Under the pieces are notes generated by a model, which saw nothing but the letters and a program-made list of their open reading frames with translations, searched no databases and was not told the DNA's origin. Below are positions 16,313 through 50,187 of a stretch of DNA of 64,000 nucleotides, in pieces (position 1 is the first letter of the stretch; each line of letters begins with the position of its first letter). The position numbers and the translations under genes are program-made. The DNA comes from a phage. The stretch lies in the NCBI GenBank assembly GCA_027262695.1, contig GCA_027262695.1_4722.1; one strand, given 5' to 3'.

Positions 16313-16840
16313 TTATCCCGGGTAAATAGCGATGACATCACCAATGACAGTTGCCGCACCAGCGTATAAATAAGCTGGAGATGCCTCACGTTGGTTTGTC
16401 ACGGTAAGATCCAATTGTCCACGCCAAACCATGGAGGTATTCGCGATGGGAATCGAGATCTTCTTGGATGTGTCGTCACGAAAATCAATGACAGTAGCAA
16501 GGATAGCTGAATCAAAATCGACATCGGTTTCAAAGATGAATCCGTACTGATCTGAAATAGCTTGTATAACCGCTCTTATAGTTGTTGTTTCAACCGACTC
16601 CAAAACGATTTTTATCGGTATCCCTAGAAACGCTTTCGCGATATCACGTCGTGCGTAAGTGATAAAACTTTCACCACACCACCTTGTTCCTTCATTTGCT
16701 GTGACGATCACTTTTGCCCTGTTAGCACCAGAACTCCCATCCAGGGTTAAAGTGAGATCGGAGTTACTGAACACGCTACCGTTACGTTGGTTTATCAACG
16801 TAATCAGTTCGTCTTTCCACGGCAGGTAAAGTGAACGCAT
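16313..16840 (-). CDS. tail fibre N-terminal attachment-domain protein (putative adaptor)
   Basis: 175 aa from ATG 16840 (GGAGG RBS); contains shared motif YARRDIAKAFLGIPIKIV; stop 6 nt before start of long fibre gene. Confidence 0.55.
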   Translation of the reverse strand: MRSLYLPWKDELITLINQRNGSVFSNSDLTLTLDGSSGANRAKVIVTANEGTRWCGESFITYARRDIAKAFLGIPIKIVLESVETTTIRAVIQAISDQYGFIFETDVDFDSAILATVIDFRDDTSKKISIPIANTSMVWRGQLDLTVTNQREASPAYLYAGAATVIGDVIAIYPG

Positions 16841-16953
16841 AAGCGCACCCTCCTCCAACAATCAAATTAAGATGCAAAACGCCTCGAAACCGGAGTGCGA
16901 TTCGAGGCAAACGTAAACAGTCTTAACGACCGCATAAAATTCCGCGCATATTA

Positions 16954-16965
16954 CCCCCCCCCCCC
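16954..16965. repeat. C12 homopolymer (G12 on coding strand), intergenic
   Basis: Twelve consecutive C between stop of 16997-18751 and start of 16313-16840. Confidence 0.9.
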
Positions 16966-16996
16966 TCGCTTCGTCGAGGTAGGGGAGGATAACACT

Positions 16997-18751
16997 TTAT
17001 GCCGCTACATACCCAGGCCAACGTTCTCTTGGCCAGTTTGTTGCGCCCTGTCCAACGTTGTCCTTACCAGAAGTTACATTACTTACGTCCCAACCACTAA
17101 GATCCTGGTTAAATGCGGTGTTGTTGCGCATCATGAGGTCGATCCTACGTAACGATTGGGTATTCCAGCCGGAAATGTCTTGGTTGAATGCCGCGTTGTA
17201 AGCAAACATGTTAACAACGTCTTGTAATTTTGAAGTGTTCCAGCCGCTTATATCGCTATTGAACTGCATGTTCGAGAACATACTGCTAGCGTTGACAAGA
17301 CTACCTGTTTTCCAGTTAACCAGCTTGTCCCCATCAAGTGCATCGCAGCTACTGAACATGTAACTCATGTCGTTAACTTTGGATACATCCCATTTATCTA
17401 ACCCGTTACCAACGAACTCGTAACAAGCTTGGAACATCCAGCTCATATCGGTAACCTGGCTCACATTCCATTTGCTAAAGTCGAGGTTGAGTTTTGCGCA
17501 TCCGGAGAAGGTTTTATACATACTGGTGATACGACTAACATCCCATTCTTGAATGTTAGGATCATTAAGTATAGATAAGAATTGGAACAATTCGTCTAAC
17601 GACGTCCATTTCTCTGGAATACGGTTTGGTACTGTACGGAGCGATGAAAGGTTATTGGTTGACGGAGAGCGGAACATACCGTTATCCCAATTTACGATTT
17701 CCGTAATGTTGTACCCACGGATCGTTTGGCGTCCATTACCATTATACACAGACCCTGTTGCAGTTATTGTATATTCGTTTGTATCAGCATACGTATGTTC
17801 AGCCTGTGTAGGCCACTCACCTATTACATCCCTATTCCCATCACCCCAATCGATGGAAATATCTGTCCAACCATCAAGATCTAGGGTAACGGTCCCGCCA
17901 TTGGTCTTCAGGACGTATTTACCTGCATTGTCGGTATAATAACAAACAATCATCGCACCGTACAGGTTACCAATTTGCCAATCATCCTTTTGAGTTACCG
18001 CGATATGTGCTGTGCCACGTTGTAGGAAAAGAACCGTACGGTTCTCGTCAGTCTGTAATGCGGTTAGTGCCTGAGTCTTATCATCGTCGGTAATTTCACC
18101 GGCTTCCACTAAAGCACTTAACATTCTTTCGAAGTATTCGATGGGTAATTGGCGTCCTACAGACATATCAACTGATGGAACAGCGAGATCATCCAATGCG
18201 GCGGCAGTTGCAAGCACTAATGATCCATTGGTGGTGCCTGTTTCTTGGAGGTAACGCAGTCCCGTAATCTGGTACGCTTGAATGATTGTAATCAGATCCA
18301 GCGTATCGTTAATGACCTGTACTTGTAAATGTCCAGACCAAACATAGCTGCTTTCAGCAATCGGTAATTCGACCGACTGAATACCCGATGTTTCAAAACT
18401 GATCTTCTTATTAAGATCGGCTTCCAGGAAATCAACCGCGAGGTCGAAATTTATACCGTACTTTTCAGCGATGGAATCTATGATGTTCCTGAAAGCAACA
18501 TCGGTACTTACGATGAATCGTAAAGGGATTCCTGTGAACGCATTAGCAATATCTCGACGAACATACGTAAGTGATTGTTCGAAGAAATAGGGACTGTTAT
18601 CTCCAGGTTTGATGGTTACCTGACACATTTCAGGATGTTCAGATGGGATGAACGATTCAAATTTAACATCGGATTCCTTCAACGAAAGCATGTTCTTCCG
18701 GTTTACCAGCGCCAGAAGATCGGCTTTCCATCCAGGATAAACAGTAGACAT
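16997..18751 (-). CDS. tail fibre protein with C-terminal DUF285-type (WxVSxVTxMxxMF) repeats
   Basis: Start at ATG 18751 (GGAG RBS); N-terminal shared domain (YVRRDIANAFTGIPLRFIV); C-terminal repeats KWNVSQVTDMSWMF, DISGWNTSKLQDVVNMF, DLSGWDVSNVTS. Confidence 0.65.
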   Translation of the reverse strand: MSTVYPGWKADLLALVNRKNMLSLKESDVKFESFIPSEHPEMCQVTIKPGDNSPYFFEQSLTYVRRDIANAFTGIPLRFIVSTDVAFRNIIDSIAEKYGINFDLAVDFLEADLNKKISFETSGIQSVELPIAESSYVWSGHLQVQVINDTLDLITIIQAYQITGLRYLQETGTTNGSLVLATAAALDDLAVPSVDMSVGRQLPIEYFERMLSALVEAGEITDDDKTQALTALQTDENRTVLFLQRGTAHIAVTQKDDWQIGNLYGAMIVCYYTDNAGKYVLKTNGGTVTLDLDGWTDISIDWGDGNRDVIGEWPTQAEHTYADTNEYTITATGSVYNGNGRQTIRGYNITEIVNWDNGMFRSPSTNNLSSLRTVPNRIPEKWTSLDELFQFLSILNDPNIQEWDVSRITSMYKTFSGCAKLNLDFSKWNVSQVTDMSWMFQACYEFVGNGLDKWDVSKVNDMSYMFSSCDALDGDKLVNWKTGSLVNASSMFSNMQFNSDISGWNTSKLQDVVNMFAYNAAFNQDISGWNTQSLRRIDLMMRNNTAFNQDLSGWDVSNVTSGKDNVGQGATNWPRERWPGYVAA

Positions 18752-18789
18752 AAGCACTCCAATCATGGGGCGGTTACCGCCCCCATCAG

Positions 18790-22398: not shown

Positions 22399-23220
22399 TT
22401 AATCGTAACTAAAATAAAGCTGGCTGCTAATTCCGCTATCTGGATGCGGTTTTAACACGAGTACGGATTCACCAAACGATGGTTTTACGGGTGCTGAGGG
22501 ACCGCTCGTGATACCGTTATAAACGACGGTAGCGTTCGTGACAAGTTCCCACGCAAGGGTATAATCCATAGACGACAATGCCGTTGCTAAACAGTAAGCT
22601 GCACGTCCTGTCGGTGATGTTCCAGCCGCGAGCCGACGTATCGCACCTTGTATAGGCACATCAAGTAATATCCCGTAGGTACTTAACGCGTGAATACCGG
22701 ATTGCGCTTGATCTTCAGGGTAGTACGATGTTAACGGTGTTTTCACCATAAACAACTCGGTGAGGTTATTGCTCTGTGCTTTCTTCGCAACGAATTGGAA
22801 AGTCCCATACCACGATTCTGAGGCGTTGGCACGAACAGCAATTGAAACCGTCTTCTCTTGGGTTTCGAATACGATCGATTGGGTTAACGTATCCTGATCG
22901 AATATTGCTAAATCAATCACTAATCCGTATTTTTGAAACAGCTGGCTTAAACAATCCGCGACGGTGGTTGCGTTAGCGACGATAACATAAGGTTGATGAT
23001 GAATGAACAGTTTACTGATATCGCGTCGTTGGAGATAAATGGAGACAGGATCGTCGGAATAATACAGTGATTGTGGCGCGGGATTAATGGACAAGCGTAT
23101 ACGTCCAGAGTTACCGTACCAGTCAGGCGTTATCGTGATATCCGATAAGGTTAGCGGTTGGTGTATATGTTGATTTAATCTAGAGAGTACATCCTCTTGC
23201 CATGTTCGTTCTGGGTACAT
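22399..23220 (-). CDS. tail fibre-locus protein with shared N-terminal attachment domain
   Basis: Start set at ATG 23220 (GAGG RBS); motif QRRDISKLF and FQKYGLVIDLAIFDQ align with the other fibre N-termini. Confidence 0.5.
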   Translation of the reverse strand: MYPERTWQEDVLSRLNQHIHQPLTLSDITITPDWYGNSGRIRLSINPAPQSLYYSDDPVSIYLQRRDISKLFIHHQPYVIVANATTVADCLSQLFQKYGLVIDLAIFDQDTLTQSIVFETQEKTVSIAVRANASESWYGTFQFVAKKAQSNNLTELFMVKTPLTSYYPEDQAQSGIHALSTYGILLDVPIQGAIRRLAAGTSPTGRAAYCLATALSSMDYTLAWELVTNATVVYNGITSGPSAPVKPSFGESVLVLKPHPDSGISSQLYFSYD

Positions 23221-23307
23221 TTTTTGACCTCGTAACTTATAAATATAACGGAGGACTGAATTCATACCATGGGAGAGGCGAAAAAAAAAAACGAAAAAAT
23301 AGGAAAA

Positions 23308-23349: not shown

Positions 23350-23937
23350 TTAATGAGGAATGAGAGAACTTAATTCGCTTTCTTCGATAACGAAGGTTTC
23401 GTTTTGGTTATCGAGATTCGTCAGCAAGACTTGTCCGACCGTAAAACAATCACCGCCTTTCTTCGGTACCCAAACCGGTTCGTTGGTTACCGAATCAGGA
23501 TACCATTTAAAACGGTTGGTGTCCAGGAAGAACGCTGCTTTGTTTTCATTATCGGTAGAACGATAACTGATCAATGCAGGCCACTCAATCCATGTCTTGG
23601 TGCACGGCACATGCAGGGGATACCACGCACGCCAATACTTACCAGGGCGTTTTGGATCCTCCCAGTATTCTGCCGTTAGCACGGCATCTTTATACTGTTT
23701 CTGCATCAGCATCTCAAGAACAGGTTCGTTGCCGAGCGGTAAACGCACCAATTCTCTTTCGACGTACGCGGGATCGTCAAAAACGTCTCGATGTAAGTGG
23801 GTGGATACCCCAACAGGGGGTTTCGCGATCGTTGGTTTACGTTTCTGTTCTTTACGACGTGTATACAGAAACAATCCGATCGATACCAGCACGAGTAAAA
23901 CAAACAACACTACCTTCATACCATCAATCCAACTCAT
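23350..23937 (-). CDS. hypothetical membrane-anchored protein
   Basis: 195 aa; N-terminal TM helix VVLFVLLVLVSIGLFLY followed by basic stretch. Confidence 0.5.
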   Translation of the reverse strand: MSWIDGMKVVLFVLLVLVSIGLFLYTRRKEQKRKPTIAKPPVGVSTHLHRDVFDDPAYVERELVRLPLGNEPVLEMLMQKQYKDAVLTAEYWEDPKRPGKYWRAWYPLHVPCTKTWIEWPALISYRSTDNENKAAFFLDTNRFKWYPDSVTNEPVWVPKKGGDCFTVGQVLLTNLDNQNETFVIEESELSSLIPH

Positions 23938-40145: not shown

Positions 40146-40410
40146 TTACACCAGACGGCACAACCACACCAGTACGAATCACTGCTGCGATTTCCTGCAT
40201 CGCTTTGCCTTTCAACGCAAAGGTTTCGTATACAACAGCACGTCGGGTTGTTAAACCCACAAACTTACAGACGACCATGTTGTCTTCTGAAAGATAAGCG
40301 GTTTCCAATTCACCATGTAACAGTTCTTTTTCTCGAGTATCAATGCCCATTAAGGCAATTTGATAGGCAGATAGTTTCCAATAACGCATATTCATCCTAC
40401 TTGTAAACAA
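40096..40410 (-). CDS. hypothetical protein
   Basis: 104-aa ORF; overlaps downstream ORF start, true start uncertain. Confidence 0.4.
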   Translation of the reverse strand: MFTSRMNMRYWKLSAYQIALMGIDTREKELLHGELETAYLSEDNMVVCKFVGLTTRRAVVYETFALKGKAMQEIAAVIRTGVVVPSGVSDDLDEVLHGTRKTAC

Positions 40411-41223
40411 TCAAATATTCCGAAACCGAGTTCCTCGTTTCTACTTTAGCCGAGATCATTCTCCTTACCGTAATCGGATGAAATTCTGATGCGGTACTAT
40501 AGATTTCTTCAACCAATGGGCACGTACTATTACTGATTACGGTAGGGATACCCTGCCTACGAAGTTTGTCGGCCGTTTCTGCAAGGTATCGGTGGTCATC
40601 CAACGTGAATCCTTCCTTGGTATAACCTGTAAAAGAGGCTGTGGTCGAAATAGGGATATACGGCGGGTCGCAATATACGACATCGCCCGATCTCACGTTT
40701 TCGAGGTGTCGTCTAAACCCACCACGTACAATTTCCACCCCCCCCCCCTCTCGACGGTGGTACGAAGATGGTTAGCAGCCGCCCGTAATTCGTATTTCGG
40801 ACAATAGATCGTCTTGTATCGTCCGTGTGCGACGTTAAATAATCCGTTTTGGTTATAGCGACACAAACCATTGAATCCGTAACGGTTCAGGTATATGAAA
40901 CACACCGCACGTTCCCAAGGATCGTTGCTTTGATTAAAACGGTCGCGCACCTCGTAATAACGTTTAACGTCTTCCGGCGCAATTTGGAATAAACGTTCAA
41001 CACCCTCAATGAATTGTTTCGGACATGTCACCAACGCTCTCCAAACATTAAGGATATCCTCGTTAGCATCCCCAATGGAATAACTAGGATATTTCAGTGA
41101 AAGCGTCACCGCACCAGAGCCGACGAACGGTTCAACCAAACGCTTTCCATCCGGCAACACATTCCTAATTTCAGGGATAAGTTTGGTTTTGTTACCCAAC
41201 CATTTAAGAAACGTTTTATTCAT
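40397..41223 (-). CDS. dam: DNA adenine methyltransferase (Dam family), reading frame interrupted inside a G11 homopolymer
   Basis: N-terminal ORF has LKWLGNKTKL and EPFVGSGAV (SAM binding); second ORF in +1 frame has VVYCDPPYIP catalytic motif; frames meet in C11 tract 40738-40748. Confidence 0.8.
40738..40748. repeat. C11 homopolymer (G11 on coding strand) inside dam
   Basis: Eleven consecutive C counted across line break 40738-40748. Confidence 0.9.
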
Positions 41224-47787: not shown

Positions 47788-48084
47788 TTATACCGCTACT
47801 TGTGCTTTAATAGCAGGGTGTGATTGATATCCGACGAACACGAAGTCTTCGTAACGGTAATCCGTGATACTCTCTGGTTTCCGCACAATTTTCAGTTTTG
47901 GTAACGGATACGGCTCACGACTAAGTTGTTCTTTAACCTGTTCGAAGTGGTTATGGTAGATGTGACAATCTCCACCTGTCCACACGAACTCCCCAACGTC
48001 CATATTCAGCTGTTGGGCGATCATGTGTGTCAACAGCGAATATGATGCGATGTTGAACGGAACACCTAAAAATACGTCAGCACT
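47788..48084 (-). CDS. thyA: thymidylate synthase, exon 2
   Basis: Encodes [25 protein letters not shown]...[39 protein letters not shown], the conserved ThyA C-terminal part. Confidence 0.85.
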
Positions 48085-49191
48085 CATTCTGTTCAGATAA
48101 GGTCGTTAGTCTTATCCCGTTATGTTAACCGCTGTAGATTATCTCTACAGTTCGGACTATATCACGATCTCCTTCCCTGGAGACCCCTCCCGTTTCACAC
48201 CCACTTGGGCGTTACGCTACTCATCACTATTTTCATTCATCCGTTTAGTGCTTTCGCTAGTCTCTGGGCATTCTTCTACAAGTCTGTACGATTCAAATTT
48301 GGGATTTTTACTGCCTAATCGATAAAGTATCGTTGCCGGAACAACGCCTAACTGCCGAGCCGCTTCAGTTAGAGAGACGTACTCGATTCCATCGATTTCC
48401 ACTTTACGTGCGTTAAGTGGAATATTCCCTCTATTCCTTTCGGCGATGAGACGGCGCGTTTCTTCGCTATGATGTCGACCATAGAACGGATTCCTTTCTC
48501 CGGTTCTGGTTTTCGCAAACTCCGACATCTTTCGACGTGTTTCGTCACTGACTTTTACCCCTAAACGTCTCGCTCTGGATGCAGCAATATTCTCAGGAGT
48601 ACACACTTTTTGTCGAATGAGTTCACGTGTTTCAGGCGTATGTGTTCGACCATACATCCCGTTACGTTCACCGGGTTTTCCGTACACTATACGACGCTCC
48701 TCTGCTGTTAAGGATGCGTTTCTTTTGTTAACAGCATAAGCTATCTTATCGATTATTTTGTCACGGTCTGGGTTTCTGGTGAGGTTGTCTCCGCCTACGA
48801 CACCCAACCCAATATTAAGCAAAGCTTCATTCGGTAGACAGTCAATGAACTTCTGCTCTAAAGCATATGCTTCTTCACGAGAAGCGCATTCATCGACCGT
48901 AACCGAGATAAAGCAGCCCTTATTATAGGCATTTTGTAATCGACTGTTTCGATGAACACCGCGACGCAAATTCGATTTGTGATCCACTAAGCGTTGCTTT
49001 AAATTGTTGGTACTACCAACATAGACATCACCATCTTGGGTACATAACCGATATACTACTGGTTTTTTCATACTGCCTCCTTTATAAGAGAGACAGACAT
49101 GTAGAAGGTTAGCAACGGATTAGCCCGTAGGCTTTCCCGTTTTAAGGAGGTTATTCGACGTAGCTCACGCTACGAAGGCGCAGTTGCATTT
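48085..49191 (-). mobile_element. group I-type intron in thyA carrying a homing endonuclease gene (boundaries inferred)
   Basis: ThyA frame broken after QLYQR (codon CGU ending at 49192) and resumed at SADVFLG (48084); intron last nucleotide G at 48085; internal GIY-YIG ORF. Confidence 0.7.
48217..49071 (-). CDS. GIY-YIG homing endonuclease (I-TevI-like) with NUMOD-type repeats and C-terminal HTH
   Basis: 284 aa; VVYRL...DVYVGSTNNLKQRLVDHKS...NSRLQNAYNK GIY-YIG motifs; repeated G.HTPETRELI and GRHHSEETRRLI modules. Confidence 0.8.
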   Translation of the reverse strand: MKKPVVYRLCTQDGDVYVGSTNNLKQRLVDHKSNLRRGVHRNSRLQNAYNKGCFISVTVDECASREEAYALEQKFIDCLPNEALLNIGLGVVGGDNLTRNPDRDKIIDKIAYAVNKRNASLTAEERRIVYGKPGERNGMYGRTHTPETRELIRQKVCTPENIAASRARRLGVKVSDETRRKMSEFAKTRTGERNPFYGRHHSEETRRLIAERNRGNIPLNARKVEIDGIEYVSLTEAARQLGVVPATILYRLGSKNPKFESYRLVEECPETSESTKRMNENSDE

Positions 49192-49914
49192 ACGCTGATA
49201 AAGCTGACACGACAGTGCGCGCGTAGGTACGTTATGCGCATTCAACCAGAGTTCGGTTTCGCTCTGTTTAACGTCGTCAGTAACCCATCGTGCCCTTAGC
49301 GCATCGTTACGGTGGACGTAATAAACACGTTCGTCGATGGTGAGCTCGTGAGTGTAGAACTGATAGAAACTATGGCATGCGGGAAGCGCCATATCGTCTA
49401 AATCGCCTACGTTCCATGCACTAACGATAATCCGCCGAGAATCAGGATCTTCTTTGAGTTGACGCATCACGTTTGCAATTTGGTCATGGTGTTTAACATA
49501 CAAGAGATGTTTGACCATACCGTCGTTAACAATACCGCAATACTCATAACCACGTTGCATCAAAGTACGGGTACGTTCTGTATCATGCGGAACAACCACT
49601 TTGTAGTCAATCCATTCTCGCCATTGTCTGCCGTAAATCGGTCCTAGATTCCCTTCCTTATCAGCCCACTCATTCCAGATGCGAACACCATTATCCTGAA
49701 GATAAGCAACGTTTGTGTCGCCGTTAAGAAACCAGAGCAGTTCGTGGATAACGCTCTTAAGGTGAATCTTCTTAGTGGTTACCAGCGGGAATCCTTTCTT
49801 CAAGTCAAAACGCATTTGACGCCCGAATACCGAACGGGTACCGGTACCTGTACGATCGGCCTTATCGCGACCGTTATCCATGATGTCTTGCAAAAGGTCC
49901 AAATACTGTTTCAT
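49192..49914 (-). CDS. thyA: thymidylate synthase, exon 1
   Basis: [38 protein letters not shown]... closely matches ThyA N-terminus; [14 protein letters not shown] and catalytic-Cys motif [11 protein letters not shown] present. Confidence 0.9.
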
Positions 49915-50187
49915 TTTAATCCTCTAAGTGTTTCAAGTAGTTCCTGAAATTTGTAACGATATTTAGGATCGCTTAACGTGCAGCAGCAACCATGTAACAC
50001 GTTATACGCGTAATCGGCTTGTAAACCACGAACCTTAGGATCCAATGATAGATTCAATGACGCACCATCAAAAATCCACGCTTCAATGTTCTTCTTGGAT
50101 TCCTTCGTTAACGTCGTTTTTCACCTCGTCGTAAAAGTAAATAGAGTTTTGTCGAGACGCCCTAATTACATACAACGTCGGTTATCC

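Follow-up and report, generated by a model that had tools for sequence, protein, structure and literature searches.

A probably hypermutable poly-G tract with the behaviour of a contingency locus in the Dam methyltransferase gene of a Goslarvirus

The stretch of DNA analysed here (64,000 nt of contig GCA_027262695.1_4722.1, NCBI GenBank assembly GCA_027262695.1; hereafter the window) carries a complete gene for a D12-class N6-adenine DNA methyltransferase (Dam), which in this allele is out of frame. Its ATG (at 41223) overlaps the 3' end of an upstream gene of 142 amino acids (aa), and its stop codon lies 8 nt before the next gene; a promoter and terminator scan around Dam gave nothing above shuffled controls. 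As the initial annotation had proposed, the two halves of Dam are offset by one nucleotide and meet inside a homopolymer of 11 G, and both the coordinates of the run and the frames on either side of it were confirmed on the sequence (Table 1). The coding strand reads ...ACC ACC GTC GAG AGG GGG GGG GGG TGG AAA... at this point (G11 after GAGA), and the N-terminal open reading frame (ORF) leaves the run in the wrong frame, ending after 14 out-of-frame residues at a stop codon (...TTVERGGGWKLYVVGLDDTSKT*). The C-terminal ORF is intact, contains VVYCDPPYIP and can be called from a GTG to which the run contributes its last G. The two fragments are identical to P0121 / EKH6014448.1 and P0122 / EKH6014447.1, respectively; NCBI annotates the first as a separate Dam-family coding sequence (CDS), and lists both as separate proteins of E. 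coli O157.

When the tract was edited in silico, G12 produced one ORF of 275 aa and G9 one of 274 aa; G8, G10, G11, and G13 all produced truncated forms. The fusion of both halves into a Dam of about 275 aa by a single added G, as predicted in the initial annotation, is therefore borne out. The junction of the G12 product (...TTVERGGGVEIV..., ERGGGVEIV) carries three glycines, however, and not the four that had been read there, and removal of two G's is a repair as valid as the addition of one. Both in-frame alleles exist in relatives, G12 in locus L092 (275 aa) and G9 in locus L094.

The repaired (+1 G) protein matches Pfam family PF02086 with 191.5 bits (cut-off 22, E = 2.8e-56) over profile positions 1-251 of 253, and its residues 2-275 align to residues 4-269 of E. 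coli Dam (2G1P/4GOL chains, E = 3e-62). The closest known enzymes are E. coli Dam (PDB 2G1P, 4GOL) and, grouped with it, phage Dam enzymes (T4 Dam, 1YFJ). E. coli Dam and the phage enzyme have in common motif I, DPPY, and three residues of the hairpin (N120, L122, R124), and the columns of EPFVGSGAV (FxGxG) and DPPY are invariant in a 42-sequence alignment. The phage enzyme differs from that of E. coli by a 7-residue insertion containing the Gly tract and by the replacements Y119 to F and P134 to A. In its recognition hairpin, LNRYGFNGLCRYN, the phage enzyme hardly departs from E. coli Dam, and it is therefore likely to be specific for GATC; the window contains 321 GATC sites. The tract itself encodes an R-G-G-G turn between a helix and the beta-strand VEIV, ahead of DPPY. 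In an AlphaFold (AF2) model of the in-frame allele at 99% identity (P0001; predicted local distance difference test, pLDDT, 89) the helix spans residues 143-159, the Gly turn 160-161, and the strand 162-165. Since this is a helix-to-strand turn at the surface, two to four glycines should be tolerated there, and in-frame alleles do carry two, three or four Gly at the turn.

Judging by collinear nucleotide similarity to Escherichia phage Goslar, the window is part of the genome of a Goslarvirus (Chimalliviridae): 78% of positions 28001-53000 aligns, in collinear order, to Goslar 113413-134216 at 82.7% identity. Over 20 kb, the window is 100% identical to contig ABJYRE010000004.1 (248,053 bp; assembly GCA_027262755.1 of an E. 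coli O157 isolate), and a Logan assembly of SRR22857735 is also 100% identical to it. The genome of a lytic, nucleus-forming jumbo phage is here present as a contig of ~248 kb within an E. coli O157 surveillance assembly. Isolate assemblies of E. coli, Salmonella, and Shigella have been described to harbour hundreds of hidden Goslarvirus genomes, which were read as persistent or carrier-state infections by a chimallin-encoding, nucleus-forming jumbo phage (PMC12768965; bioRxiv 10.1101/2024.12.31.630880), and the window matches these recently described persistent phages associated with bacterial assemblies. Neither of the two sources mentions methyltransferases, homopolymers or frameshifts, and a literature search on Goslarviruses found no account of the Dam G tract. 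Goslar itself is without Dam at the corresponding position, where gp125 abuts gp124. Dam is therefore an accessory gene of the group, and loss of its function is viable.

The G run in Dam is far beyond chance. About 0.0006 G/C runs of 11 or more are expected in the window, which holds two runs of 11-12 (the Dam tract and a second tract, Table 1) and none of 6-10. GGG is also the rarest Gly codon in the ORFs of the window (16%).

Relatives of Dam were collected from a set of 5.8 billion proteins and from 90%-identity clusters, on contigs labelled E. coli O157, Salmonella, and Shigella. The protein search returned a 274-aa match at 99% identity, several matches of 274 or 275 aa at ~77%, and one truncated form of 174 aa; the clusters comprised Dam forms of 274, 275, 176, 174, 171, 170, 169, 165, 164, 163, and 162 aa, carried by contigs as long as 248 kb. 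Via the neighbouring genes of the window, ten more loci were retrieved as DNA and their tract lengths read directly. The alleles fall into two sequence backgrounds in the window's own clade and three states in a second clade (Table 1). About half of the alleles in the window's clade are in frame, and identical first 150 residues of Dam go with two to five different tract states. Across 2.2 kb around Dam the tract is the sole indel among strains of this clade, which differ by 10-27 substitutions. In IMG/VR there was no close relative of this Dam (best match 43% identity), and pattern scans across the tract in JGI metagenomes, IMG/VR, and GTDB genomes yielded nothing beyond one contig already known.

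Table 1. Features of the Dam locus, tract states among related loci (L numbers), and other features of the window
Feature	Position	Strand	Content or basis
Complete Dam gene (D12-class N6-adenine DNA methyltransferase), out of frame in the window allele	40397..41223	-	Sequence, frames, PF02086, match to E. coli Dam
G11 homopolymer, point of the frame switch (C11 on the + strand)	40738..40748	-	Sequence and in-silico editing; 9-13 G in relatives
N-terminal ORF, 176 aa	40693..41223	-	FLKWLGNK, AdoMet (S-adenosylmethionine) motif I EPFVGSGAV, DNA-recognition hairpin LNRYGFNGLCRYN
C-terminal ORF, 113 aa, with catalytic DPPY motif	40397..40738	-	-1 frame relative to the N-terminal part; MEIVRGGF...DPPY...
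GAG-A-Gn background (window's clade)			n=9: L094 (274 aa, in frame); n=10: L086; n=11: window, L081-L083; n=12: L092 (275 aa, in frame)
GAG-Gn background (A to G; window's clade)			n=10: L093, L095; n=11: L089 (274 aa, in frame); n=12: L088, L096; n=13: L091
Second clade (77% aa identity)			In-frame G11: L102; synonymously broken GGA-GGA-GGG: L098, L099, L103; out-of-frame G6-A-G5: L100, L101
Second G tract (C12 on +, G12 on the coding strand)	16954..16965	-	Between a 584-aa DUF7941+DUF285 gene and a 175-aa DUF7941 gene
Paralogous neighbour genes with a DUF7941 N-terminal domain	16313..18766 and 22399..23265	-	M..Y.PW..(D/E)L..L.N
Third long homopolymer (A11 on +, T11 on - strand)	23281..23291		Intergenic; downstream of a gene ending at 23350
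Thymidylate synthase gene, split	~47790..49915	-	L081 1310-3436

Apart from the tract, the out-of-frame alleles for which DNA could be read are undamaged. There are nine of these OFF alleles; one G more or less is enough to bring each of them back to 274-275 aa, and none carries a second lesion. Between the two clades synonymous divergence is saturated (dS ~3), with dN at 0.15 and omega (dN/dS) at ~0.05 in both halves of the gene (~0.04 in the C-terminal ORF), pairs of OFF alleles included. Such a low omega in both halves, even between one OFF allele and another, marks purifying selection and argues that Dam was kept functional over most of its history and that OFF states are young or reversible. 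The initial annotation had offered a choice between a homopolymer sequencing error and slipped-strand phase variation of the methyltransferase; the 9-13 G found in relatives, in frame and out of frame, favour a real, hypervariable tract. Taking the alleles together, we conclude that the tract is probably a real hypermutable site which behaves like a contingency locus, and that the window carries its OFF state, in which read-through would need the gain of one G or the loss of two.

Several points weigh against this reading and have to be set beside its alternatives. The tract in the window could have been miscounted by the short-read consensus or the assembly, with the phage in the sample really in frame (G12 or G9). 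Sister NCBI contigs differ by 2 bp (248,053 vs 248,055 bp). At the second G tract the window has G12 where the Logan assembly of its own strain has G11, the two being otherwise without a mismatch over 6.5 kb, and several NCBI contigs end adjoining the Dam tract (the 'partial' proteins P0159-P0162), so calls at such tract lengths are not fully reliable. At the Dam tract, however, G11 is the same in the NCBI and Logan assemblies, the products of two assemblers, in at least six contigs, and it recurs in a distinct strain (L083) with flanks just 93.6% identical to the window. A miscount of ±1 would not produce the spread of 4-5 nt in tract length that the group shows, and the OFF allele of L100 and L101 is a change from G5 to G6 seen in two samples, in a run too short for consensus error. 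A miscount in the window is thus improbable. A further alternative accepts the G11 count and has this allele yield full-length Dam by programmed -1 ribosomal frameshifting or by transcriptional slippage. The C-terminal part does lie in the -1 frame, G GGG GGG lets tRNA-Gly re-pair perfectly, and long homopolymers can cause slippage of RNA polymerase. Yet many alleles are in frame, and those that are OFF include +1, -1, and +2, so that no frameshift requirement is conserved among the homologues, and the 98 nt downstream of the tract fold at -28.9 kcal/mol compared to -25.5±3.5 kcal/mol for shuffled sequences (z = -0.96), which is no RNA structure beyond the shuffles. Programmed frameshifting was rejected on these two grounds, and we hold recoding in either form to be very unlikely, although incidental slippage may leak some full-length Dam from the G11 allele.

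More weight has to be given to neutral decay at a mutational hotspot. On this view a real and unstable tract switches without function, Dam is dispensable and repeatedly inactivated, and poly-G expansion is a general mutational habit of these phages. The absence of the gene from Goslar fits this explanation, and so does the arm of an intergenic hairpin at the second tract, which grew to G8, G11 or G12, so that G runs arise and expand outside genes as well. A comparison of low power inside the window's clade counts 2-4 non-synonymous differences in the C-terminal part and no synonymous one, and a few relatives carry extra lesions, namely a deletion in P0150 and a second frameshift in P0153; both observations fit relaxed constraint in some lineages. 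Among the cluster members listed, pure tracts were ON in 15-46 contigs and OFF in 54, as against 50 ON and 2 OFF for tracts interrupted by substitution (GEG, GRG, GKG, GGA, through GGG to GAG, AGG, AAG or GGA; Fisher p < 1e-10), counts that are rough, with 15 members listed per cluster and contigs that are not independent. The ON fraction of the pure tracts in this set, 0.22-0.46, spans the 1/3 that tract length would give if it drifted without selection. Among the retrieved loci there was no strictly isogenic pair of DNAs differing solely at the tract, the closest pair being 99.2% identical over 19 kb, and all of the evidence comes from assemblies, so it describes allele diversity at the level of the population, not rates within one phage population. 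Against neutral decay stand the omega between the clades and the lack of second lesions in the nine OFF alleles, which imply young or reversible OFF states. The two clades, saturated at synonymous sites, also have a G run at the same codons, and many lineages have fixed substitutions that break the tract and keep Dam ON, implying a useful product; the wide spread of such 'locked-ON' alleles suggests that the enzyme is of use to the phage. Neutral decay is a serious rival on this balance, if a doubtful one, and a genuine hypermutable tract in a gene otherwise kept intact is the reading that we prefer.

The second G tract stands at the head of a cluster of tail-fibre genes, and one NCBI contig ends ~100 nt away from it. 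Related loci of this site are L104-L113. In other strains it is a perfect hairpin, CCCCTACCTCG-ACGAAG-CGAGGTAGGGG, with the arm CGAGG-TA-GGGGGG; in strains resembling the window the TA of this arm has been lost and the run stands at G8, as this loss leaves it, or at G11 or G12. As this tract is intergenic, instability of G runs appears, from these sequences, to be generic in these phages, and the tract may affect termination or expression of the fibre genes downstream. The 6-nt loop of the same hairpin is inverted between strains, CTTCGT in L105 and L106 vs ACGAAG in L107, L108, and L111, with the stem unchanged, which on the sequence bears the signature of a template-switch inversion at the hairpin. 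The DUF7941 genes nearby have a common N-terminal domain and differing C-terminal parts, one of them a DUF285/BspA-like repeat region, and adjoin Peptidase_S74 tail-fibre genes; they probably encode a set of fibre or adaptor proteins that are alternatives to one another.

Two further features of the window are recorded here. The thymidylate synthase gene is split into parts of 249 aa and 99 aa by an ORF of 284 aa for a GIY-YIG/NUMOD3 homing endonuclease, and is intact (339 aa) in L088, L089, L091, L096, and L098. The arrangement looks like a mobile intron of the T4 td kind; Rfam at its gathering threshold gave no match in the whole window, the split thymidylate synthase stretch included (no group I intron). 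The third long homopolymer follows a GC-rich hairpin (GGTGTTCATCC...GGATGAACACC), and the site resembles an intrinsic terminator whose T tail is unusually long.

Repeats that slip in and out of frame inside methyltransferase genes have well-known bacterial counterparts, the phasevarions, examples of which are the Type III mod genes of Haemophilus, Neisseria, and Helicobacter and the poly-G tracts in methyltransferase genes of Helicobacter and Campylobacter. Slippage-driven phase variation of such genes is well established (PMC12707154). The Dam locus resembles these systems in the position of the repeat within a methyltransferase ORF, in OFF alleles that are otherwise intact, and in 'locked' alleles with interrupted repeats. 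It differs from them in that phasevarions belong to chromosomal restriction-modification systems, whereas the Dam here is an orphan enzyme (D12 class, alpha group) carried by a lytic jumbo phage. The closest precedent among phages is a poly-G run inside the DNA methylase gene of Bordetella phage BPP-1, which according to a later preprint was noted and never followed up (PMC12633550, citing Liu et al. 2004); BPP-1 is a temperate podovirus, however, and its methylase is of another family. A Dam homologue of phage phi80 with 40% identity, damL (JX871397.1 26521-27310), is annotated in a single record as 'DNA adenine methylase pseudogene, disrupted by a frameshift'.

Homopolymer contingency loci have also been described in T2 agt and T4 rIIA (Gomez, Barrick and Waters, bioRxiv 2025, PMC12633550), and Campylobacter phages of the Fletchervirus group are reported to have poly-G tracts in genes for receptor binding (Sorensen et al. 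2021, cited in the same preprint). In those loci, as would be the case here, homopolymers within ORFs lead to reversible frameshifts and mixed progeny, for which bet-hedging against host defence or receptor variation has been proposed. The T-even loci are mostly A/T runs of 6-8 nt and those of Fletchervirus are runs of 7-11 G in receptor-binding proteins, compared to 9-13 G in the present case, where the gene is one for DNA modification in a chimallivirus. A further difference from the T2, T4, and Fletchervirus loci is that the evidence presented here consists of population-level allele diversity and not of measured rates.

The helix-to-strand turn of Dam, with its two to four glycines, is encoded by a pure G run, in which each gain or loss of one G shifts the reading frame. 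We suggest that this run slips at DNA replication and so leaves, in the Goslarvirus population, a mixture of ON and OFF alleles of a gene that is otherwise intact and selectively maintained. The tract would then change by replication slippage at a high rate, reversibly within a lineage, OFF alleles would give unmethylated virion DNA, and switching between the two states could be advantageous as a form of bet-hedging. Evasion of restriction through GATC methylation, which the initial annotation had put forward, is not an obvious benefit for a nucleus-forming phage that shields its DNA and grows on Dam+ enterobacteria. In the bet-hedging scheme the phage nucleus would exclude the host Dam, and the phage Dam would decide the GATC methylation of the progeny; slippage would go unrepaired as host mismatch repair would be excluded too, every burst would mix methylated and unmethylated virions, and this mixture could hedge between hosts or defences attacking one state or the other. 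Alternatively within the same scheme, the switch could toggle the expression of phage genes, and with it persistent (carrier-state) vs productive infection, as a phage 'phasevarion'. That the poly-G tract serves nucleus-forming jumbo phages as such an epigenetic switch, selected for bet-hedging, is a speculative proposal, and one that we consider unlikely by some distance.

There are practical consequences for the handling of these genomes. Annotation will go on dividing Dam into two CDSs, assemblies are prone to break at the tract, and differences in tract length should not be counted in phage typing as markers comparable to single-nucleotide polymorphisms. For the biology of the group, a Dam that flips between ON and OFF would be a concrete source of heterogeneity in Goslarviruses that coexist with clinical and surveillance E. 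coli, Salmonella, and Shigella. Candidate contingency loci documented in phages are few, and this Dam would be a further one, in a gene for DNA modification carried by a chimallivirus.

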